Positions 5,630 to 63,330 of a DNA stretch of 64,000 nucleotides are shown piece after piece. Made by a program: the position numbers and the translations under genes. Position 1 is the first letter of the stretch; every line of letters begins with the position of its first letter. The stretch comes from Torpedo marmorata (Eukaryota). The notes under the pieces were generated by a model. That model saw nothing but the letters and a program-made list of their open reading frames with translations. It searched no databases and was not told where the DNA came from. Location of the stretch: positions 107,508,001 through 107,572,000 of the forward strand of contig OZ360222.1 in NCBI GenBank assembly GCA_977017645.1. The letters are read 5' to 3'.

Positions 5630-8600
5630 CTATGTTGGTGCCAGTGAGGTACTTATATGTTCTAAATAAGGCTGCCAGATTTTTAGGAAGGTATTATATC
5701 CCTTCCTGAGATTGTATGTGACCTTTTCAAGTGGGATGCAGCTATTCATCTCTGAAGACCACCTATCCATGAGGAGATGGGAGTCAGACTTCCATGTTAC
5801 TGCTATGCATTTCCTGGCAATTTCTGTGAATTTAATTTGAGAATTAGTTAGCGATCTACCAACCCTGGTAAAGTTCCCCAGAAGACAAAGCTCTGGGTCT
5901 ACTGGGAAGGTGACTCCCGTGATCTTGGTTAGGATGTCACAAAGGTCATACCAGAAGGGCCTCACCTTCGTGCAAAGCCAGGTAGAATGTAAGAAGGAAC
6001 CAACCTCTATACCACACCTAAAACACATCTCTGATAACTCAGGTTTATATTGGTGTAATTTCTGTGGGGTGAGGTACAGCTGATGGAGAAAATTATAATG
6101 GACCAATCTATACCTGGCATTGATAGTAGTCAACAAACTTCCCTGACATAGACCAGAGTAGTTCATCAATTGTTGTGTCTAAGTCTGACTCCCATCTCAC
6201 TCTAGATTTATGCAAACCTGGCTTTGAGCTCTCACTCATCAATAAAAAGTACATTCTAGAAATAAATTTATATACATTTCCTTCATGGAGTAGTTTCTCC
6301 TTTTCAGTGAGTCCCGGTAGAGTCATTTCAGGGCCCAAATTGGCCCTAAGGAAGGATCGTAACTGGAGGTAACAAAAAAAGGTCTTATTGGACGTCATAT
6401 TTCTTCTTCAGCTGTTCAAATGACATGAAAAGTCCTTTTTCGTAACAATCTTCCAGATGTTGTATCCCCTTATGATACCAGGTTTCCAAAATTTTATTGT
6501 TCAAAGTCATGGGTATAAGTTCATTTTGTCTTAAAGGTGTCTTCGGTGACAATCCTCTTTTCAGTCCAGAGCCTCCACAGGTCTCACACCATGTTCTAAC
6601 CAAGTGTTTTAAAATGGGGTTGTCTGTCCTGCTGGCTATAATTCTGGAATTCCATTTATACATGAAATCATTATACACCTCCTCTTTTAGAGAGTGCAAT
6701 CCAATTTGTACCCAGGAGGGGGTATATTCCCTCTCAAAAAATGAAGAAATAAATCTCATTTGGGCCACCAAATAATATTTTTTGAAACTAGGCAACCGGA
6801 TGCCTCCTAATCTATAATCCCATGTTAACGTTTCCATGGATACTCTGGGTACTTTACAGTTCCACATAAATTGCCCAACATGCTTATTAAGGGTTTTAAA
6901 AAAGATTTGAGGTAGTGGAATGGGAAAGGACTGGAAAAGGTACTGCAATCTTGGCAATATATTCATCTTCACACAGTTGACTCTGCCAATTAGAGTGATG
7001 GGCAAGTTCACCCACCTACTCAAGTCTTCTTTAATTTTACTAAGTAGCGGGAGGTAATTGAGTTTGTATAAATTCTGAAAATCAATATCCACCATTATTC
7101 CAAGGTATTTAATGCCACTCGAGGGCCATTTGAATGGACTTGTTCGCTGGTACTCAGTGTGATCAAAATTTGTTGCTGGGGCGATTTCACTTTTTCCCCA
7201 GTTTACCTTGTATCCTGAAACTTCGCCGTAAGCTTTTAATAGAATCTGTAATTTAGTAAGGGAATTAATCGGATCCGTTAAATACAGGATTACATCGTCT
7301 GCCATAAGATTAATTTTGTGGTTTGTCTGACCCACCATAAAACCCTTTATCTCCGGGTCTTGTCTAATTGCCTCTGCCAAGGGCTCAATAGACAAGACAA
7401 AAAGTCCTGGAGATAAGGGGCAACACTGTCGGCTCGATCTGCTCAAAGGGAACGTTGCCGAGATCTGTCCATTAGTGGCGACCCTGGCTTTGGGTCTGTA
7501 ATAAAGAGTTTTAACCCAATTAATAAACAGTTGCCCAAATCCGAGATTGGCCAAGACTCTAAATAAATATGGCCATTCCAGCCTGTCAAATGCTTTCTCA
7601 GCATCCAGACCCACAGCAACACTCGGTTCAGCCTTAAGACTTTGCATAGTGGATAATATTGAAGAGCCTACATAGGCTGTTGGCTGACCGGCGTTTCAGA
7701 ATAAAGCTGCTCTGGTCTGGATTTATTAATTTCGGCAGGTATTGGCCAAGCCTGTTAGCCAGGGCCTTAGAAATCAATTTGTAATTTGAGTTTAGTAATG
7801 AAATGGGTCGAAATGAGGAGCATTTTAATGGGTCCCTGTTTTTTTAATGAATCACAGTAATTAGGCAGTAGAAAATGATTCAGGGAGAGTTTGGGTTTTA
7901 GATGCTAAGTTAATTACATCCATGATGAGGGGTATAAGTAGATCATTAAATTCTCTATAAAATTCTGGTGGGAAACCGTCCTCCCCTGGTGATTTATTGG
8001 ACTGTAGTGAGCCCAAGGCTTTTTCAATTTCTTTTGAAGTAAAGGGGAGGTCCAAATTTGCTTGACCTTCTTGGTCAAGTTTGGGTAGTTCAACAGTGGA
8101 TAAGAAGTCATCAACCTTAGTTAGGTCTTCTGGGGACTCTGATTTATATAAGTTTGTATAAAACTGTTTAAATGTGTCACTGATTTCTGTTGGATTATGT
8201 GAAACTGAGCCCATTTCAGTCTGAATTGAATTTATTGTTCTCGAACTCTCCTCTGCTCTCAATTGCCAGGACAAGACTTTATGTGCTTTTTCTCTCAGTT
8301 CATAATATCTTTGTTTAGTTCTTAGAATGTTTTTTTGAATTTTATAAGTGTGCAGTGTATTGTACTTGAGTTTTTTTGTTTACAAGCACTTTATATGTTT
8401 CTTTGGAGCTAGACTGTTGAAACTCCATTTCCAATTGCAGAATTTCTGTTTCCAGCTCTTCTATGTCTGCTATGTATTTCTTCTTAATACCTTTTGTATA
8501 TGAGATTATCTGTCCTCTAAGGTAGGCTTTTAACGTGTCCCATAGGATAAAACTATTGGGAGCAGAGGGACAGTTTATCTCACAGAACAACTTTATCTGG

Positions 8601-9537
8601 TCTCTAATGAATTTTCAAAATTCTGGTTTTTGGAGTAGGGTAGGATTCAGACACCATCTGTATGAGTTAGTTGATTTTTCTGGCATCAAAATAGAGAGAG
8701 TCAGAGGCGAATGATCCGACAAGGTTCTAGATAGGTATTCAGATTCTAATGTTCTGTGAATTAACTGTGTTGATAACAAAAAGAGGTCAATCCTAGTATG
8801 GGAGTCATGGGGTGCGGAATAAAAGGAGTAGTCCCTGGTTTGAGGGTGTGTTTGCCTCCACACATCTGTCAAATTTAAATCTTTCATAAAGGCCAAAGTG
8901 GTTTTGGCCACTTTTATTTTGTCCAGAATGGGATCCAAACAAAAATTGAAGTCACCTCCTACAAGTATATTTTGTCGTCCCCCTGAAACCTTAAGGAAGA
9001 TATCTTGAATAAAGGATTCATCATCATAGTTAGGTGCGTATAGGTTTAAAAGTGTCGAGGACTCTGAGTAAAGTTGACAATTAACTAATACATATCAGCC
9101 TGACGGTTCAATGATAGTTTCTCCAATTGTTACTGGAGTATTTTTGTATATCAGGATGGCTACCCCCCTGGCTTTGGAATTAAAAGATGACGACATTACA
9201 TGTCTTACCCACTCTCTCCTTAGTTTCTTATGTTCCTGTGCAGTAAGGTGCGTTTCTTTTATAAAGGTAATATCATTTTTCATTTTTTTCAGGTGTGCCA
9301 AGACTCAATACAACTGGGATTGTCTGATCTTGGAAGCTAAGCAGGCACAGGACTGGTCAGTACTTGAAGGGGAACACCAGGTGCTGTAGGCTTCTGTGAG
9401 GGGCTCTGGACAAAGTAGCGACCCTCTGTCTGCCTTACGGTGGACAAAAATGGAACCTTTATCTTTACTCGTTTCCTTTTAACCGGTCCATTCAGCCCAT
9501 TCACATTAAAGCTAACAAATTTCACTACCTTATTCAT
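5630..9537 (-). pseudogene. L1 ORF2 (APE endonuclease - reverse transcriptase - CCHC), frameshifted
   Basis: Fragments MNKVVKFVSFNVNGLNGPVKRKRV, GGDFN, RIDLFL...LSDHSP, KSPGEDGF, LDAEKAFDRLEW, RQCCPLSP, MADD, KYLGI and CFRC...H...C are spread over several frames. Confidence 0.92.
9307..9466 (+). mobile_element. 5S rRNA-derived SINE (SINE3-type), copy 1, inserted in L1 ORF2
   Basis: GTCTGATCTTGGAAGCTAAGCAGG...CTGGTCAGTACTTG...GGTGCTGTAGGCTT matches 5S rRNA and is followed by a non-5S body and tail. Flanked by ACTC (9303-9306 and 9467-9470); it splits L1 codons KRKRV|LAHL. Confidence 0.85.
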
Positions 9538-10049
9538 TAATTTTACCTCCTGTAAAATCTCCATACAAGTAAAAATGTGTCTCCTGTGACAGAGTAGCAA
9601 AAGATCGGATAAGGCACTGACATGCTTGACAAATTTAAAAATAAAAATAAGAATAAAAATAAAAAGCCCTCCCCATGCCGACCTCTGAACATTCAGCATT
9701 ACCTTCCCCATTAGGCTGGGATGTGCATCCTGCACTCACTAAGTATAGAATATCTAACTAACTCTTAAACATTTTACCCAGCCCAGAGCTCCTATCTAAA
9801 AAATATAAACTATTATACAAGATTATGCAACTTTGAATACAACAATAGGTTTTTTTTTTAAAAAAACGCTCAACTCAGAAACAATTACTGTGAAAATCAG
9901 CCGCCATAAAAAACTAGTCAGTTTAAATTGGAACTCGTCTATCTATTGTAGGTGGAAAAAGTGACTACAGTTTAAGGCACATATCCATGGCAGTTCGTGA
10001 GGACGACGATTGCCTATCCAATTTTACTCCACCTTCTCTTGCTCGCCAT

Positions 10050-10965
10050 TTTATTCTCCTTCTGGTCAATTACACAAGATTGTCATCGCTTCCCCGGGCA
10101 CCTTGAAGAATCTCCTCCTTCCATCAGGGAGTACGACCCTCAGTGTTGCCGGGTGAAGTAAGGCAAATGGGATGTTCTTAGACTGGAGCTCCTTCTTGAC
10201 CTGGTCCACTTAGGTCGGGAAAAAATAGCACTGGCCTGTTATCGTATGTAACGGGGCCCTTGTCCTCTCTCGCTCGCCGCGCGGCGATGCGCAACATTTT
10301 ATCCCGATCCTGATACCTCAATAGACGTTACAGGATGTGTCTCATTCTCTGGCCCGCAGATGTGCCAGGCGCAGAGACTCGATCGGCCCGTTCAATCCCT
10401 ATTGGTTCACTAAAGTGTTCTCGTCCCAGAATGTCTGGGATCCAGCCTGTACAAAATTCTATGGGTCCCTTTCCCTCAGAGCCTTCCTTCAGATTAACGA
10501 TATGGACATTATTATACCAGCTGTAATTTTCTAACTGGTCTACTTTTCCCAGCAGAAAGTCATTTTCCTTCCTTAGCGCCTCAAGGGAGGAGTCCATCTC
10601 TGTTAGTTGATCCTCTACCATCCCGACGCACTCCTCCGCGGCAGCCACCCGGGAGGTCAGCTGGTTTAACATGATTAACCTGAGATGGACTGGTTAATCT
10701 CCTTCGTTTTGACATCTAATTTATTAGAGATGGCTTCGTTACCTCTTTGAATCGCCTGAAGGAGGACACGTGAATCCCCCTCCTTCAGTAGTTGCTCCTG
10801 AGCTGGCCCCGTTCCAGGGATGGATCTCTCCGCAGACCTCAAGGCTTTTGAGGCCGCCATCTTGCCGTTTTGCTGACGTCACGTTGCTGAGATGGATTCC
10901 ACTATCAAGGCTGAATTCTGGTCAGTAACTGTATTTCTTTGTTTAGTTCTTCGTTTCTTGCTCAT
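10050..10965 (-). pseudogene. L1 ORF1 remnant (coiled-coil/RRM type); lower-coordinate boundary approximate
   Basis: ATG AGC AAG AAA CGA at 10965; coiled-coil-like stretch LTSRVAAAEE...LRKENDFLLGKVDQLENYS, then NVHIVNLKEGSEG and IERADRV. Contains internal stops. Confidence 0.8.
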
Positions 10966-11188
10966 GCTCTAGCAATTCAGCTGGTTTAAAGGCGATTTTA
11001 AGCATTTTTAACGGTTTTAAACTGCCGCCATCTTGTCGTTTTGCCGACGTCCTGTTGCTGAGATGGATTCCACTATTAAGACTGAATTCTGGTCAATAAC
11101 TGTATTTCTTTGTTTAGTCCTTCATTTCTTGCTCTAGCTATTCAGCTAGTTTAAAGGCAATTTTGAGTGTTTTTAACGGTTTTTAACT
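10853..11188. repeat. Tandem duplication (~170 bp x2) at the L1 5'UTR/ORF1 start
   Basis: 10853-11023 and 11024-11188 both begin GCCGCCATCTTG and align throughout. Confidence 0.92.
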
Positions 11189-12890
11189 GAATTCTTCAGA
11201 GGAGCCCCGGGGCTCGCGTCCTCCTATCTCCGCTGCATCATGTGATCCCCTCCCTTGATCATCTTTGTACAACTGAATGTTTCCAAACTTCTTCCAAGAT
11301 GTATTAAAAAGCCAAACAGCAAAGTAAACTAAACAAAATGCATTGACAGTAAACACATAATTCAATCATACCAGCATTGTCTATGCAGTAAAACAATAGT
11401 GGGTACACCATAAACTGCTGTGTAATTGGCCAAAATAGATTCCAGGATAGTACAGTAGTTTGTAACAGGCATACCAGCACAGACATCAAATTACATATTC
11501 AGCCACAAATAAAGATCTACAAACAAAAATGATTAAGGCATTCAAAGACCAAAAGTGCAATTATAAAGGATATATTTTAGGATGAGTTTGTGAAATATTG
11601 TATTCATTTAAAATAAATTGCCATTAAAATTGCTTTCAATAATGTAGGTGTCAATTACTGAGAAAACAAATATCGCAGCCACCAAGGATTTTGAGTGATT
11701 TGATCGATTCCTTTTCAGCCATTGGTAGATTTGGCTGACTTTTTTTATTTGGCTGACTGTTTAATCTCAATTTGTTGTCAGTATTATTCATCAATTGGCC
11801 TTCATTGATAATTTTTACTTGTAAGTAGTTTACCTCTTCACTTTTAACTTACTATACATTTATGAATATAAAACACAAGTTCGAAGTAATCATGAAATAC
11901 AGAAAATTTGTGTGCATGTTCAAGAGTATGCCAAAATGATACATCTGAAGTGTTAGCGACCAAATAATGCCAGATGTATATTTTAATATTAAAATTTATA
12001 GCCTTGTACAAATGGAAATGAGAGTAAATAAATGTCAAAACAATCTTGCTTCAACCACTAAAGTGGCCATTAGAGTAAAAACATCAGTAAGGTAAATTTC
12101 CCCTTTAGGCTCACAGAATGCAGACATTATTAAAATAATTTCAGCATTTACACAGATGTACAATTGCAACTCCAAATTTCAAAGTCAGCTCATGTATTCT
12201 ATGTTGCTGCCCTATGCAGTACTTGGTAAATTTGGAAAAAAAAAAATTCTAATTATTCCACAAATAAAAACACCAAACTGACCAAGGTCTGGCAATATAC
12301 TGTAAATATGAAGACAACTCCAGAAACAGCATTTAAAGATGAATTATTCAATTGTTTTCATTGAGATGAATTTACTCAGGATTGATCATAATACATTACA
12401 ACAGTAAAAAAAAATGCATCAAAGAAACTTCACAGGTTGTAAAGTACTTTAGAACATACTCGGGTTGTGAAAGATGTGATACAAATGAAAATTTCTTTCT
12501 GTTCCACAATCTTTGGTTAATTCTTCATGTACAGCTCAGTCTGCTTGTTCAATATTAAAATGAGACAATAATACTTACACTTATACAGTGTTTTTATTAA
12601 ACAATAAATTATGTTACAGCACATCAAGCAACTGATTACTTTTTACATGTGGTGCCCATCAAGAAAAGCAAAGACATAATAAGCATGGTATAGCCAGAAA
12701 GAGGAAAACAGAAGGAATTAACATATCAGTAATTCTGCTCGTGTACATTCCTGCTGACTTGTCCTGAAAGCATAGGTGGGTCAACCTTCAGTTGAGTTAC
12801 TCACCCTCAGTTGCCTTTTTAATATCTGAACCTGACAGATTAGTAGGTGCAGGAGATAATAAGCAAGAAGCAATTTGAGATTTAAAATTA

Positions 12891-13911
12891 CCGTATTTCC
12901 CCAAAAAAATCGCCTCAAAAACCACCCCGGGTCTTATACGCGAAGGTGACATTTTGGTGCCGCCATTATGGTGCTGCCATTTTGGGCACTGAGTGGAGTC
13001 CAGGAAGCGGGCCCGCAGCTTCGCGTACCACCTTCCCTTGGGTGGCCCGTACTTTCTGGAGTCGCCGCCGCCGCTCACTTCCCCCGGTAAGAAGGCTCGC
13101 TCTCTCCCTCCTTCCCGCCCACTCTCTCCCTCCCGTTCGCTCTACCCGCCCGCCCGCTCACTCTCGCCCGTTCTCTCCCCGCCCGCTCTCGTCCGCTCTC
13201 TCCCTCCCGTTCGCTCTCCCCGCCCGCCTTCGCCCGCTCTCTCCCCGCCCGTTCGCTCTCCCCGCCCGCCTGCTCACCCGCTCCCTCCCCGCCCGTTTGC
13301 TCTCCCCGCCCGCTCGCTCTCGCCTGCTCTCTCCCCTCACGTTCGCTCTCACCAACAGTGCTTTGAGGGGAGCGCTGGGCCTCGATGATCAGCCTTTTTT
13401 GTTCAACGAGTACGGACCCTCGAGCAAATTGAATGAGGCGCGGGGTCGGGTGGCAGTGAGCGAGCGGCCTGTCAAGCTCAGCTCAACAGGCCGCCCGCTC
13501 GCTCACTGCCACCTGCGCCTCATTCAATCTGTTCGGGGGGCCGTGTGCATCGAACAAAGGCTCAGAGTGGAGCCTGATCACTGAAGCCCAGCGCTCCCCT
13601 CAAAGCAAGCGATCGATCGATTGTCTGCTCCCCACGACGGTGGGCCTGGGCCCTGCCCGTTGTCTTGGCTTCTCTCCCTCCCACCCTTGTGCGCCCGCAG
13701 GTCCCGGCACACCTGTTAATCAATTAGCGTTTGGACGGTGGGGGGGAAGCAGCCTGAGCCTCGGCGTGTGGCGGGCAGGAGGACGTGTTGCTGCTGTGAA
13801 GGTAAATACACAAACAATTTTTTCCTGAAATCTCATGCTAAAAATGGGGGATTCCTATATGCCGTCAAATATGGTAGTTTAAGAACGAATCCTATATGCC
13901 GTCAAATACGG
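12891..13911. mobile_element. Non-autonomous TcMar (Tc2/pogo-like) DNA element
   Basis: TA|CCGTATTT at the left end; AAATATGG|TA (13874) and AAATACGG|TA (13911) at the right. No transposase. Contains an internal C/T-rich minisatellite and a long palindrome. Confidence 0.7.
13095..13350. repeat. Pyrimidine-rich degenerate minisatellite (CTCTCCCCGCCCG-like units)
   Basis: Repeated ctctccccgcccg / ccgttcgctctc units are visible directly. Confidence 0.85.
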
Positions 13912-17130: not shown

Positions 17131-17980
17131 AAAAAAATGGCGGTGCTGCCAGAGCCGGTGTAGCGGCAGCACTGCCGCTGGTGTGGACCTGCGGGGAGCT
17201 AGGGAGCAGAGATACAGCGCTCCCGCGGGGTCCAGCCGCCCAGTCGACTGCCGTCGGTTCCGCAGGGGCTTTGAACGGCCCTTGAGGGAGCCAACGGTGG
17301 TCTTATTTAAGATCCCGCGACCACGGGGTCTGCGCCCAAGATGGCAGTGCCTTTTAACCGGCAGCAGCCACGAGGGGCTGCAGATTTCAGGGAAGCGGAG
17401 GACTGGAGCAGGGCACCAGAGGACGGGAAGATCACCCCCCCCATCTGAGAAGGAGAAGCGGAGGAGACGACCCACAGGATGGTGACCACGGCGGCGGACC
17501 AGTGAGGGGCTCTGAGGCTGAAGGACCAGTGAATGCGGCGGGCTGCTGGCGACTCGAGGCGAGGAACCCGCGGAGGCTGTGGGCTGCTGGAGACTGCTGT
17601 CAGGGGACTCACGCCGGGCTGCGGACTGCTGGAGGCTGGCTCGAACTGGCTGGAGGAGTACCAGGTATCGGAACCGGGATGCGAGAAGGTGCCGAGGGCG
17701 CCGTGACCGTGTCGGAGGTTCGGATCCGGAGCTCCGGTTGCCGATGGTTTGGACTGGACTCTGTGTGGCTGCGGAGGCTGCAGAAGCACTGGAGGCGAAT
17801 CTACGGACACACGGTGACTCTGGGGGGGACTCTCTTTTGCTTCTCTTTCTCTGACTGTAAGAGGCGCTTAGGCAATTTCTGCCAGTGGTGAATCTGTCTG
17901 CCTTGCAGCAGGCAAAAAGAAATTTCATGTAATATGACACTGTTTTATTACTATGACAATAAATTGAATCTTGATTTTGA
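17131..17980 (+). mobile_element. GC/CpG-rich non-coding retroposon with a Rex1/Babar-like 3' tail
   Basis: Sharp GC-rich block in AT-rich flanks. Ends in AATCTGTCTGCCTT...AATTTCATGTA...TGACAATAAATTGAATCTTGA. No protein motif in any frame. Confidence 0.65.
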
Positions 17981-18524
17981 ATGGATTTCTTTTTTTGTCT
18001 TACAATGAAAAATACCCACTATGACTAAAATCTTAAACTCAGCTTTAAAGTATTTTTTTTAAGAAATAAACAGCAATTGTCAGTTTTTTTTTAATACAAA
18101 TTATATTTAATTTTTAAAAGTTCATTTGAATATGATATTAAACATCCAACATTATTTCAAGCCCTCAGGGTCCAACGTGAGCAGATGCACAAAGTTCAGT
18201 ACAGTATTGCATTGCTACATGTGGCCAATTCAGAAAATACAAGTTTGAACTTTGCTTTTTTTTTCCACTCTGGAATCATTCAACATAACAGTTCTTATTT
18301 CAGTGCAATTGCCTAAATTAATAGAAATCTCAGCAGCAGCAAATAAAGATCTCTCTCCAAATCTTCCTGCTGTCTCCTTCCTCCATTTGGCAGTCACAGA
18401 GAATACTGGCATGGCCGAGTGCCATTTCTTACAATCAATCATCTAAATATGCTCCTAGGATGAGATGCATGAATTCAGGTATGTCTCATTCATCTGCACT
18501 CTACTCCAAAGCTGACATTTGTTA

Positions 18525-18762
18525 ATACCAATAGCCTAAATACGACTGGGATTGTCTGATCTCGGAAGCTAAGCAGGCACAAGACTGGTCAGTACTTGGA
18601 GGGGAGACCGCCAAGAAACATCAGGTGCTGTAGGTTTCTGTAAGGGGCGCTGGACAAAGTAGCGACAATCTGTCTGCCTTACAGTAAACAAAAATTAAAG
18701 AATTTCATGTATGTTACATTCTAAATGTAGTATTACGTGACAATAATGAAACCTTTACCTTT
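18525..18762 (+). mobile_element. 5S rRNA-derived SINE (SINE3-type), copy 2, more complete
   Basis: GTCTGATCTCGGAAGCTAAGCAGG..CTGGTCAGTACTTGGAGGGGAGACCGCC..GGTGCTGTAGG covers 5S box A, the intermediate element and box C. Same body as copy 1, ending in (ACCTTT)2. Confidence 0.88.
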
Positions 18763-29100: not shown

Positions 29101-29534
29101 TGTTGCACAGGATACCAAAAAAGAAAAATCAAGATACATCTGTCAGAACCACATCAGCAACAGAGTACGAGAGCCATTTATCATTCCACTGAGGAGTCGG
29201 TGCATTGAGTGGACTTTCCTATCAAACCAACCTTTGAAATTTCCAACATGCCCTTAAACTTTTGAATAAGCAAGTCTGAGCGCTTCAGTAACTGCCCTCC
29301 TAACTCTGGCCTGGCTGGTATAAATGGCATCTTAAAGTCAAGGTCACCCATGTCACTTTGCCATGGGGCTGTGCTTAATTACAGTGCAATGCTGACAACT
29401 AATATAGACTCAGGACTAGCAGCAGCAGTTTGATTAAAGATAAATAAATAAACAGAATACATCAAGGCATACGTTTTTCTTTTCTCTGCTTGTTTCTGCT
29501 TGTGCAAGTGGAGTGTTTTGTTTGCTTTTTTTAC

Positions 29535-29867
29535 CTGTTGCTGTGCTTTCCTGTTTGGGGCAAACTCCCTTGGATGACGTAGAGAGACAATCGTCATCGT
29601 CTGGTGTGACCTGGATGCCAACCTCAACAGGTGTGGATGCCTTTTTGAGTTCACTGGGAGAAGGCGACGGTGGCTTATCCACAGCTTTGTCCAGACAGAG
29701 GCCGCCATTGCATTGCTTCCTTTTGTGCTCAATAAAGATTAGAATGTCCCCCAGTGGGAAATTCATCTGACACTGGCCACAGGTAAGGAGGTCGTGGTCA
29801 CCCTCAGGAGCTCCCAAGGTGCCATGCTCCTCTTCATCATCCGTGAGAATGTCTTCAAGGGAATCAG
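29535..29867 (-). CDS. BCL11A: BCL11A coding exon 2 (333 nt; C2HC zinc finger ZF0)
   Basis: Acceptor ctttgctgtag|CTGAT (AG at 29869-29868) and donor ACAG|GTAAAA (GT at 29534-29533), phase 1-1. Translation (P)[110 protein letters not shown] closely matches human BCL11A exon 2 as I recall it. Confidence 0.97.
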
Positions 29868-29947
29868 CTACAGCAAAGACAAACAGGAGAGGAAAATTAT
29901 GAAAATCAGTTGATTCTTCTTAGCAAATTTATGCATCATCAAACTTC

Positions 29948-47544: not shown

Positions 47545-48570
47545 GTTCAGAATCAGAATCAGAATTTATTGTCATGAACAAGTCATGAAATTCGGTGTTT
47601 TGCGGCAGCATCATAGTGCAAACATTCATATTATAACCATCTTACGACATTACTATAAAAAAATTAAAATAATAGTGCACGAAAAGTAAGGCAGTGTCTT
47701 TGGATCATTGATTATTCAGGAATCTGATGGCAGCGGGGAAGAAGCTGTCCTTGTGCCGTTGAGTGCTCATCTTCCGGCTCCTGTACCTTTTTCCCGATGG
47801 GAGCAGAGTGAAGAGGGCATGGCCTGGGTGGTGGGGGTCATTGAGGATAGAGGCTGCTTTTTTAAGACACCGCCTCATGTAGATGTCCTCGATGGAGTGA
47901 AGTTTGGTGCCTGTGATGTCACAGGCCGAGTTAACAACCCTCTGGAGTTTATTCTTGGCCTGAGAGTTGGCGCCTCCATACCAGGCAGTGATGCAACCAG
48001 CCAGAATGCTCTCCACGGTACACCTGTAGAAGTTTACGAGAGTCTTCGGTGACATACCGAATCTCCTCAGACACCTCACAAAGTATAGCTGCTGGCGAGC
48101 TTTCTTTCTGATTGCATCAACGTGGAGGCTCCAGGACAGATCCTCGGAGATGTTGACACCCGGGAATTTGAAGTTCTTGACCCTCTCCACTACTGAGCCT
48201 TCGATGAGGACTGGGTCGTGTTCCCCTGACTTCCTCCTGAAGTCCACAATCATTTGCTTGGTTTTGCTGACGTTGAGCGCAAGGTTGTTGTCGTTACACC
48301 ATTCAACGAGCTGATCTATCTCCCTCCTGTACGCTTCCTCATTGCCGTTTGTGATTCTGCCGACAACTGTGGTGTCAAACTTGTAGATGGCATTGGTATT
48401 GTGCCTGGCCACACAGTCATGGGTGTATAAGGAGTAGAGCAGTGGGCTAAGCACGCATCCTTGGGGTGCGCCTATGTTAATAATCAGTGAGGTGGAGACG
48501 TTGTTTCCAATTCGTACTGATTGTGGTCTTCCGATGAGAAAGTCAAGGATCCAGTTTCAGAGGGGGGTAC
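47545..48570 (-). mobile_element. Rex1/Babar-type LINE, 5'-truncated
   Basis: ORF 47705..48454 reads [13 protein letters not shown]...YKF(AD deleted)DTTVVGRI...LNVSKTK...[12 protein letters not shown]. Tail GAATTTCATGAC...TGACAATAAA(TTCTGA)3. Confidence 0.88.
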
Positions 48571-60829: not shown

Positions 60830-63330
60830 CATTGACTACATTTCCTCCCATTCTACTTCTTAAAGGTATTCTATTTCAATTGTAATTCAATTTCTCCATC
60901 TTAATCACTTGTTCTGGTGATACTACTGACATATAAGTGCACCTGTTCTGTTTTCCTTTCTCTGCAATCAAGAACTCCCCATTATTTTGGTTGACAGAGC
61001 CCTCAGCTATGTTTGTTTCATTTCCTGCATTCCTGCTCTCAATCCTCCACCTTTCATAGCTACGAACAGATTCCCACTGGCTTCATCTTCCAATTCACCA
61101 GCCACTTTACTCAATATATAATTTTCCACCACCTCTTGATTGAAAGCACCACCATAGGCACCCCTCCCCATCTCTCATTTCCAAACATTTGTGTCCAATC
61201 TTCAATCATCCCAACACCTAACCCCTTCCCATTGCACATTCCAATGCAAGCGCTAAAGATACAAATCCTGCCTTTTTATTTCTATCCTTCCTAACATTCA
61301 TGTCCCAAATCTTCTGTACTGGTGAAACTTATTGACCTGTCCTTTTAATTTAGTGCACTGCATTCACTACACATTGTGGTATGCTCTGCAGCAGTGACAC
61401 AAACCAACTCTCCGAGGTCTTCACAAAGATCTTCAACCTGTCCCTGTCTACATCCACCATCCCACCTTGCCTGAAGTTTGCCACAATCATTGCACTGCTG
61501 CAAAAGACTGTCATCAGCGGCCTCAACGATTACCGTCCGGTAGCACTCACACCGGTCATCATGAAGTGCTTTGAGAGGCTGGTTTTGCAGCACATCAAAG
61601 CCAGCCTCCCACCCACCTTTGACCCATACCAGTTTGCCTACAGAGCAAATAGGTCCACAGAAGACGCCATTGCCACTGCTCTTCACACTGCACTGACTCA
61701 CCTTGAACATCAGGGGAGCTATGTGAGGAGGCTTTTTATAGACTTTAGCTCTGCCTTTAACACCGTCATCCCGGGCAGACGGGTTACCAAAATTAATGAC
61801 TTAGGCTTTTCTCAACCCATCTGTCACTGGATCAAGGACTTTCTGACCAATTGCCCCCAGACTGTGCGATTAGGCCCTCACCTTTCCTCCACCCTTAAAC
61901 TCAGCACCGGCTCTCCACAGGGCTCTATGTTGAGCCCCATTCTCTATGCCCTCTACACTCATGACTGTGACCCCACTCATTCCACCAACACCATCATCAA
62001 GTTCGCGGATGACACGACTGTGGTTGGACTTATCTCAGGAGGAGATGAGACAGCCTACAGGGATGAAGTCCAAAGACTGACACCGTGGTGTTCAGAGAAC
62101 AATCTCGTCCTGAACTCCTCAAAGACAAAAGAACTCATAGTAGACTTCCGGAAGAACAGTGCAGACCCCGACCCACTATACATGAACGGGGACTGTGTGG
62201 ATAGGGTCATCACTGCTTTCAGGTTTCTGGGTACGCACATCGCAGAAGACCTCTCCTGGTCTACCAACACCACCTCAGTAGTCAAAAAGGCACAGCAGCG
62301 ACTCCACCTCCTGAGGATTCTCAGGAAAATCAATCTGCAGGAGAAGCTGCTGATGTCCTTCTACCGCTGCTCCATCGAGGGTGTGCTGGCATACTGTATT
62401 CCTGTGTGGTATGCCAGCTGCTCAGCAGCGGGCAGGAGAGTTCTTCAGAGGGTCATCAATATCACTCAGAAGATCATCGGCTGCTCACTGCCCTCTTTGG
62501 AGGATTTATTCAGCACTCGCTGCCTCAGTAGAGCAGTCAATATACTAAAAGACCCATCCCACCTTGGACATCATCTGTTTGAGCTGCTACCCTCAGGTAG
62601 ATGCTTCAGGTCCATTAAATCATGGACAAACAGACTTAAGAACAGTTTCTACCCCAGAGCCAAACGAGAACTAAACACTGCCAAGCACTGATACCGACTG
62701 GTTGGGATCTGTGTGACTATCATCACTACAATACTACAGTCACATCTATAGAACAGTTGTATACAATTATAACTGCACCTTTTTATGTATATATTCCGGA
62801 CTGCATTATTTGTACATAGAGCCACTACATTACAACTGCACTTTTGTATGTAAATATTCCCAACTGCACTACTTATATAGAGGGCCACTGCAATTTTCAA
62901 TCCCAGTAAATGTGCAATATCCAGAAGTGCAATATCTCAATATCTCAGTTGTTTTCGTATTGTTTTAATTGCTATTGTATTGGTTTTATATCTTATTGTT
63001 TACATTTTTTTCTTTTTTTTTAATTTCTGTTTGATTTGTGTGAATGCACCATTAGGATTGCTAATTAATTTTGTTGTACTCTGTGCAATGACAATAAAGG
63101 AATATCTATCTATCTCTATACAAACCAGATTGAGTGACCACCTTGTGAAATATTTGTGTTTAGTGCACAAGTGTTACCCTAAGTTTCTGGTTCATTATGA
63201 CTAAATTTCCGCCCCACTCCCAATCTGACCGCTCCAGTGGAGTTCACCTCAACTCATTTTAAGGGCTCACAGATATAACATTGAGTTTATCAACTTCAAG
63301 TTGCAGTCATAAATCCCGTTTTGTAGAATG
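60830..63330 (+). mobile_element. Old Penelope remnant (60830-61380 and 63115-63330) interrupted by a Rex1/Babar LINE
   Basis: KGILFQL..QFLHL at the start; the GIY-YIG-like text [11 protein letters not shown] | ...TRLSDHLVKYL is split by the Rex insertion. Confidence 0.55.
61381..62691 (+). CDS. Rex1/Babar-type reverse transcriptase ORF (5'-truncated, 436 aa open); element extends to ~63115
   Basis: [68 protein letters not shown] and FLGTHI. Tail TGACAATAAAGG followed by (TATC)n. Confidence 0.92.

Follow-up and report, generated by a model that had tools for sequence, protein, structure and literature searches.

A young, high-copy 5S rRNA-headed SINE in Torpedo marmorata shares its body with a tRNA-headed sister and an ~850-bp element and is likely copied by a Rex1-type LINE

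The window analysed here, a single stretch of 64,000 nucleotides of the Torpedo marmorata genome, contains two copies of a SINE, an ~850-bp GC-rich non-autonomous element, an L1 ORF2 and two 5′-truncated Rex1-type LINEs, called RexA and RexB (Table 1). The SINE consists of a head derived from 5S rRNA and a 125-nt body, ~240 nt in all. The more complete of its two copies, the focal copy, lies 550 bp downstream of the ~850-bp element. The limits of boxes A, IE and C in the focal head follow the standard 5S numbering. On the minus strand, positions 29434–29919 hold an exon with a BCL11A-like CCHC zinc finger (PF25491), and both SINE copies may lie within the following intron of this BCL11A-like gene. 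At 13359–13607 the window has a long imperfect palindrome, which matches itself at 71% across 269 nt and is embedded in GC-rich sequence made up partly of short tandem units; a ~170-nt tandem duplication (87%) lies at 10853–11189, upstream of an L1 ORF1-like frame. A 215-aa open frame at 1294–1941, on the minus strand, presumably resembles a Gypsy-type gag fragment.

Table 1. Features of the window, with positions counted from its first nucleotide.
Feature	Positions	Strand	Remarks
Focal SINE copy	18527..18762	+	Almost complete; initial 5 nt of the consensus missing
5S rRNA-derived head of focal copy	18527..18636	+	5S positions ~10–119; Rfam RF00001
Box A of 5S head	18567..18581	+	13/15 identical to 5S gene (consensus)
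Intermediate element (IE) of 5S head	18584..18589	+	5/6 as in 5S gene
Box C of 5S head	18597..18614	+	15/18 as in 5S gene
Body hairpin 1	18641..18671	+	Moderate support for likeness to the extreme 5′ terminus of Rex1-type LINEs
Body hairpin 2	18671..18690	+	8 bp in consensus, weakened in focal copy; from folding
Terminal stem-loop	18705..18746	+	Ends in TGACAATAA; from folding
ACCTTT repeats at SINE terminus	18751..18762	+	From sequence
~850-bp GC-rich non-autonomous element	17135..17983	+	Starts AAATGGCG; ends TGACAATAA plus short repeats
3′ module of ~850-bp element	17855..17975	+	Homologous to entire SINE body; from alignment
Second SINE copy	9307..9466	+	5′-truncated; 12-nt box C deletion; 54-nt loss of terminal stem-loop; antisense in L1 ORF2
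Target duplication, left	9303..9306	.	4 nt, ACTC, again at 9467–9470
Host L1 ORF2, broken	5630..9545	-	Endonuclease and RT fragments; interrupted by the 9307–9466 copy
RexA, 5′-truncated Rex1-type LINE	47545..48556	-	Commonest family; age as SINE; shares only GAATTTCATG and TGACAATAA with SINE
RexB, 5′-truncated Rex1-type LINE	61354..63115	+	Tail no nearer to SINE than chance

The two copies in the window align with 83% identity over 163 nt (E 3e-47). An earlier note, made from the letters of the window, had placed the second copy exactly and had recognised that it sits inside L1 ORF2, where it lies antisense and is flanked by the 4-nt ACTC duplication; its start for the focal copy, 18525, is corrected here to 18527. 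The insertion point of the second copy is ~25 codons into the endonuclease part of L1 ORF2, where the flanking frame reads ...KRKRV on one side and LAHLKKMK... on the other. Three losses account for the shortness of this copy, namely the 5′ truncation, the 12-nt deletion in the head and the 54-nt deletion of the terminal stem-loop. A separate short subfamily represented by the 9307 form was ruled out, as the 54-nt deletion is found in 0 of 29 other best matches. Exact junctions of the 12-nt box C deletion number 51 genome-wide, several of them within one amplified unit; one box C-deleted copy has multiplied passively as part of a larger repeat, which is found for the most part on small contigs. 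The rarity of the deletion (51 versus 19,201 exact head-body junctions) is as expected if copies without box C cannot serve as sources. A clear target-site duplication was sought at the flanks of the focal copy, and none was found. Across 100 copies, duplications of at least 6 nt occur in 9, while shuffles give 4.7 on average and 10 at most; there is thus no clear excess in a test that covers duplications of 5 nt and more.

The genome-wide search and the consensus for which the earlier note had called yield a real, young, high-copy family. Searching the genome with the SINE gave 2,142 candidates, and the 40 that were scored are 95–100% identical. Exact 18-mers across the head-body junction number 19,201, with 0 for the backwards control, and exact 18-mers of the tail loop number 25,277, with 2 for the control. 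Of the 84 headed copies along the initial 17.6 Mb of contig C1, 65 retain the exact junction, and on this basis we estimate ~25,000 headed and ~33,000 tail-bearing copies; a negligible copy number, which the earlier note had named as grounds for giving up its reading, does not apply. Seven copies were found in 80 evenly spaced 10-kb samples (800 kb), which scales to ~54,000 with a Poisson range of ~22,000–112,000. Forty copies taken in order along contig C1 are on average 2.3% distant from the consensus, and 18 of the 40 start at consensus base 1; 5′ truncations occur. At consensus position 92, where the consensus has A, the 5S-gene base T is present in 18 of 40 copies, and the T/A split suggests two head subfamilies. 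The non-5S substitutions, the common body and the ACCTTT-type end, which the earlier note had seen to be shared by the two window copies, are all family-wide (30 of 30 loci). Contigs from four public runs, belonging to four organisms, cover the head and body of the SINE, so the family is not limited to the Torpedo assembly.

The head consensus is identical to the genome's own tandem 5S gene at 93 of 115 positions (81%), and the family begins at 5S +5. Upstream of the boxes, 32 of 45 positions are as in the 5S gene; the corresponding values within the boxes are given in Table 1. The three elements of the type 1 Pol III promoter that typify SINE3, boxes A, IE and C, are thus recognisable by sequence. 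The Rfam 5S_rRNA model scores 34.1 bits against 18527–18636 (E 0.003), which is below its gathering score of 38. The T5 terminator of the 5S gene is shortened to TTT in the SINE and no T4 run is present anywhere in the element, so that read-through into the body would be possible. The head folds with -44.7 kcal/mol, a value reached by 4% of equally mutated controls; inspection by eye suggests that the changes at 28–36 would turn loop C into a longer helix. The 5S rDNA array itself lies at ~86.2–86.56 Mb of contig C25, in units of ~3.1–3.8 kb; an L1 fragment and a piece of a Rex1-type RT lie in the spacers.

SINEBase (PMC3531059, in the excerpts available) defines a SINE by its size and number (less than 1 kb, interspersed, at least 100 copies), by a head that is 60% or more identical to tRNA, 5S or 7SL RNA along a minimum of 60 nt, and by its distinctness from RNA pseudogenes. 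The Torpedo family is ~240 nt long with its exact junctions interspersed on many contigs, its head has the identity to 5S given above, and 22 fixed changes together with a constant body are found in 30 of 30 loci. We give almost no credence to the idea that the copies are processed 5S pseudogenes or dispersed rDNA fragments, since the shared body and the diagnostic substitutions already refute it: the head is indeed a near-complete 5S that still folds stably, but it carries the 22 fixed differences from the gene, the constant 125-nt body is missing from the rDNA flank, the ~25,000 copies are dispersed, and the same body also stands under a tRNA head.

This second head is tRNA-Thr(TGT)-like. 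The bodies of the two SINEs are ~97% identical, differing at ~4 of 129 positions. Exact 17-mers of the tRNA-headed sister number 951, and all 30 fetched sites have a tRNA-like head followed by the same body; ARAGORN calls tRNA-Thr(TGT) in 5 of 7 copies. The sister is 2.2% distant from its consensus, the same age as the 5S SINE. 5S-headed copies outnumber tRNA-headed ones by ~17 to 1 (84 versus 5 of 100 tail sites). The tRNA head has also been seen as a loose end in the public run of one other organism.

Judged by alignment, the nearest relative of the SINE body is the non-autonomous ~850-bp element. Over its full length the body is colinear with the element's 3′ module in its older form, with a score of 109.5 and, for the tail, p < 0.001. 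Because the whole 125-nt body aligns to the module, no room would be left for a Deu domain; that is, the end-to-end alignment leaves no apparent central segment. The element is non-coding and has no RT similarity. It was matched in 17 of the 80 10-kb samples, and from this figure it may exceed 100,000 copies. Its interior matched none of the LINE sequences tested, and against the 5′ regions of RexA and of RexC, a third Rex1-type family, it gave nothing better than E 0.1, except for nested copies of the element itself. Young and old subfamilies of the element exist. At its 5′ end it has a strong hairpin (z -3.3), and AAGATGGC recurs as a second start ~200 nt inside, as if the element had been made by serial 5′ additions. 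One young member of the family sits antisense within a tRNA-headed SINE copy, so the activities of the two either overlapped or followed in that order. The earlier note had missed the tRNA-headed sister, the ~850-bp relative and the probable derivation of the body's opening part from a 5′ end.

At its 3′ end the SINE has the layout of the Rex1-type LINEs. All Rex1-type LINE tails recovered terminate in TGA(C/T)AATAA followed by a short repeat, the motif by which they were chosen, and the SINE ends in the same way. Folding of the SINE tail gives z -3.3 for one intact copy and -1.3 for the focal copy. In stringent LINEs the reverse transcriptase recognises a 3′ terminal hairpin, according to excerpts of PMC5135761, and by analogy the terminal stem-loop with TGACAATAA is likely the reverse-transcriptase recognition site. 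The LINE ends compared with the SINE tail were of Rex1 type and CR1 type. In an anchor-preserving shuffle, the SINE tail resembles the RexC tail with p 0.0005–0.0045; against the RexA and RexB tails, p is 0.59–1.0, which is chance level. The tail parallels that the earlier note had drawn at 47545–47620 and ~63090 consequently hold for the motifs, which are present, and fail as alignments.

It is improbable, in our estimate, that the SINE is mobilised by CR1 or L2, as was reported for zebrafish SINE3-1. Such a partner would agree with the published SINE3/AmnSINE1 partners, which are CR1-4_DR-like (PMC3747384, in part), and a CR1-type end consensus from 14 mixed sites does resemble the SINE tail with p 0.009–0.04. 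However, this consensus is without TGACAATAA, the window's own CR1-type end compares with the SINE tail at below chance (p 0.98–0.99), and the terminal motif and short-repeat end of the SINE agree with Rex1-type LINEs.

LINEs bearing the exact tail of the SINE were looked for in several ways, as follows. Among 100 consecutive tail sites there was no LINE: 84 were 5S-headed, 5 tRNA-headed and 11 truncated, one of the truncated copies lying inside an L1 frame. None of 30 old-type tails runs into RT. The pattern of the body start without a 5S end occurs at 86 sites, and the 30 that were read were 13 5S-headed, 6 tRNA-headed and 11 truncated copies, with no LINE. That is, the near-identical 3′ end on an autonomous LINE that marks a stringent SINE/LINE pair was not found at the 100 tail sites, and the similarity is the diverged one to RexC; a rare partner may exist. 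The proposal of the earlier note, a SINE3 mobilised by Rex1/Babar, is upheld in that the family is a high-copy SINE3 with Rex1-type 3′ architecture and that its best-aligning tail is Rex1-type; the elements it named cannot be demonstrated as donors, and no LINE with the same tail was recovered at the sites just listed. In samples picked by pattern, and so biased towards young copies, 23 RexA tails have a median distance of 2.2% and nine RexC tails one of 4.2%. By this measure RexC copies look older than the SINE. RexC, closer in sequence, is the likelier sequence donor of the body; RexA, which equals the SINE in age and is commoner by a factor of three, is at least as likely a source of the enzyme.

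The three full-length RexC copies are 3.1–3.8 kb long, and in them the start motif of the endonuclease follows the 5′ end by ~320 nt; the RexA 5′ ends lie 550–780 nt before the query site in the endonuclease region. These lengths fit a single EN-RT frame without ORF1. The RT homologs of these LINEs are fish and frog proteins with PF00078 and PF09004, at 55–71%, and no clade name appears among the 120 matches listed. PF09004 is linked to Rex1. The peptides S-S-A-F-N-T and then K-x-R/Q-Q-x-L, ~500–550 nt apart, are present in RexA, RexB and 5 of 8 RexC copies, and are not present in L1 and CR1-type controls; these motifs come from the RT segments targeted by published Rex1 primers (PMC3728117, in part). 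On the DNA of these LINEs, the primers themselves match no better than on controls. A single EN-RT frame without ORF1 is the description of Rex1/Babar in PMC13343379, the excerpts of which also report heavy Rex1 content in rays. The putative Rex1 identity of RexA, RexB and RexC thus draws on the lack of ORF1, the primer-region peptide motifs and PF09004, rather than on an RT tree.

We consider it quite probable that the family is a young, high-copy 5S-derived SINE whose 125-nt body is common to the tRNA-Thr-headed sister and the ~850-bp element, and that it is transcribed by Pol III and copied in trans by a Rex1-type LINE. The steps would be as follows. TFIIIA and TFIIIC would bind the internal boxes of the 5S head, and Pol III would pass the shortened TTT terminator, enter the body and end at a flanking T run. 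A Rex1-type ORF2 protein would bind the terminal hairpins and TGACAATAA and then nick the target. Target-primed reverse transcription would start on the ACCTTT repeats, leaving short target duplications or none. The body would have arisen in the lineage of the non-autonomous element, probably from two ends of a RexC-like LINE joined by internal deletion. A 5S or tRNA head would have been gained by template switching, one head later replacing the other.

How the body originated is the step that can be read in two ways. Over its first ~35 nt the body is similar to RexC at the latter's extreme 5′ end, which suggests, with moderate support, a bipartite Rex1 unit. A(A/G)ATGGCG opens both full-length RexA and full-length RexC, and it opens the ~850-bp element too; the LINE 5′ ends then carry GGCGCC, a short spacer and GGCGACT, and the identical pair opens the SINE body. 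The resemblance was spotted by eye before it was tested, and the 11 RexC 5′ ends used in the test were picked by the second motif of the pair (GGCGACT) and are related copies, not independent ones; against them the median per-window p is lowest with the old module (0.0009), followed by the tRNA SINE (0.002) and the 5S SINE (0.026). When the halves of the old module are compared with full-length RexC, the best windows are the first (position 0) and the last in 3 of 3 copies; for the 3′ part, nhmmer gives E 0.003–0.13. The first half of the old module scores 24.5–28.5 on the RexC 5′ end versus 10–12.5 on the 3′ UTR immediately upstream, and the 5′ end outscores the adjacent 3′ UTR for 22 of 23 individual old copies. 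That hairpin 1 might be part of a continuous RexC 3′ UTR was ruled out, the scores being at background. RexC also has TTCTGC at both putative joints.

The other reading takes the family to be an ordinary SINE3 with a Rex1-derived 3′ tail only. On this view the non-autonomous element's interior would have supplied the first 35 nt, and their likeness to the LINE 5′ end, a small CpG-rich hairpin, would be due to chance or convergence. This departs from the mechanism given above in the step on the origin of the body only, and we would put it somewhat below an even chance. It agrees with the weak direct similarity of the 5S SINE to the RexC 5′ end (the p of 0.026 above), which is the SINE's best window in only 1 of 3 full-length copies, and with the hairpin 1 profile, which matches 1 of 3 RexC 5′ ends with E 0.26. 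It also agrees with the absence of a free, head-less two-ended unit from the 1.81 Mb searched and with the folding of the LINE 5′-end hairpins, which is no better than that of shuffles (z 0 to -1.6). The much lower p values of the older module and the tRNA sister, the best window at position 0 in every full-length RexC, the preference of nearly all old copies for the 5′ end and the TTCTGC at both joints stand against it. A two-ended Rex1 origin of the body is, in our judgement, slightly better than an even prospect.

It is tempting to propose a broader scheme, which we regard as falling barely short of even. Rex1 LINEs, like RTE and Vingi, would yield a minimal unit of a ~35-nt 5′ end and an ~85-nt 3′ end joined at TTCTGC. 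In this lineage the unit would have been driven by a 5S promoter, by a tRNA-Thr promoter and by a GC-rich leader of ~720 bp whose own beginning resembles a Rex1 5′ end. The SINE would now be copied by a Rex1 family that is not the donor; if so, RNA shape rather than shared sequence would be what is recognised.

RSg-1 is a Rex1 element. In salmon and trout, OS-SINE1 has a 5S head, a Deu domain and an RSg-1 tail (excerpts of PMC3747384, PMC3272025 and PMC5135761), and like the Torpedo SINE it places a 5S head on a LINE-derived tail common to tRNA-headed SINEs, in its case SlmI and HpaI. In contrast, the Torpedo SINE apparently has no room for Deu and belongs to another host lineage, and no near-identical partner LINE tail was found for it. 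CoeSINE4 and CoeSINE5 of the coelacanth and HaSE1 and HaSE3 of Helicoverpa, with RTE-derived bodies (PMC5786205 and PMC3272025, in part), resemble the Torpedo pair in that a tRNA-headed and a 5S-headed SINE stand on one LINE-derived body. The CoeSINE4/5 body is made of the 5′ and 3′ ends of a LINE, as reported in the same excerpts, but that LINE is RTE, whereas the Torpedo ends look Rex1-type; and HaSE3 is reported as the rarer one of its pair (PMC3272025, in part), whereas in Torpedo the 5S version is by far the commoner. Zebrafish SINE3-1 and AmnSINE1 share with the Torpedo SINE the 5S-derived head and type 1 internal promoter; they are DeuSINEs with a CR1-4_DR-like partner (both from excerpts of PMC3747384), whereas the Torpedo body is different and shorter and has a Rex1-type end.

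The bipartite non-autonomous LINEs RIME, RTE-N and Bov-A are ORF-less, keep both LINE ends and seed SINE bodies (PMC5786205, in part). Unlike them, the Torpedo ~850-bp element has the unmatched interior described above. The sections of Kojima 2018 (PMC5786205) at hand name RTE, Ingi, Vingi and R2 as the only bipartite sources, and mention Rex1 0 times. Cartilaginous fish also have SINEs with LINE-derived tails, namely the shark families HE1, SacSINE1, SINE2-1_CM and the CmiSINEs (PMC3747384 and PMC5499810, in part), the three tabulated in the excerpts of PMC3747384 being tRNA-headed with CR1-type partners. No 5S-headed or Rex-tailed SINE of a cartilaginous fish is given in the portions of PMC3747384 and PMC5499810 at hand. 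A 5S head on the salmonid RSg-1 tail had already been published, as the excerpts cited above record. Neither the Torpedo SINE family nor bipartite Rex1 elements were described in the literature searched; Dfam, Repbase or SINEBase may list the family. We conclude that this is a real SINE3 family, apparently undescribed in the literature searched, and of a known general kind. It stands out as a variant by a body that is possibly a two-ended Rex1 unit and that three kinds of element share.

Few SINEs carry a 5S head, and those that do are said to be handicapped by their promoter. The ~17 to 1 excess of the 5S version over a tRNA-headed sister of the same age and with a near-identical body allows two types of Pol III promoter to be tested against each other in a natural pair. 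The general understanding of retroposition is unchanged by the finding. Should the body prove to be a two-ended Rex1 unit, Rex1 would join the few LINE clades from which SINE bodies are seeded, in agreement with its lack of ORF1, and the hairpins would map the needs of the Rex1 reverse transcriptase, which has been little studied. The tens of thousands of 5S-like copies will confound 5S rDNA counts and FISH, and the young SINE insertions are usable as lineage markers.
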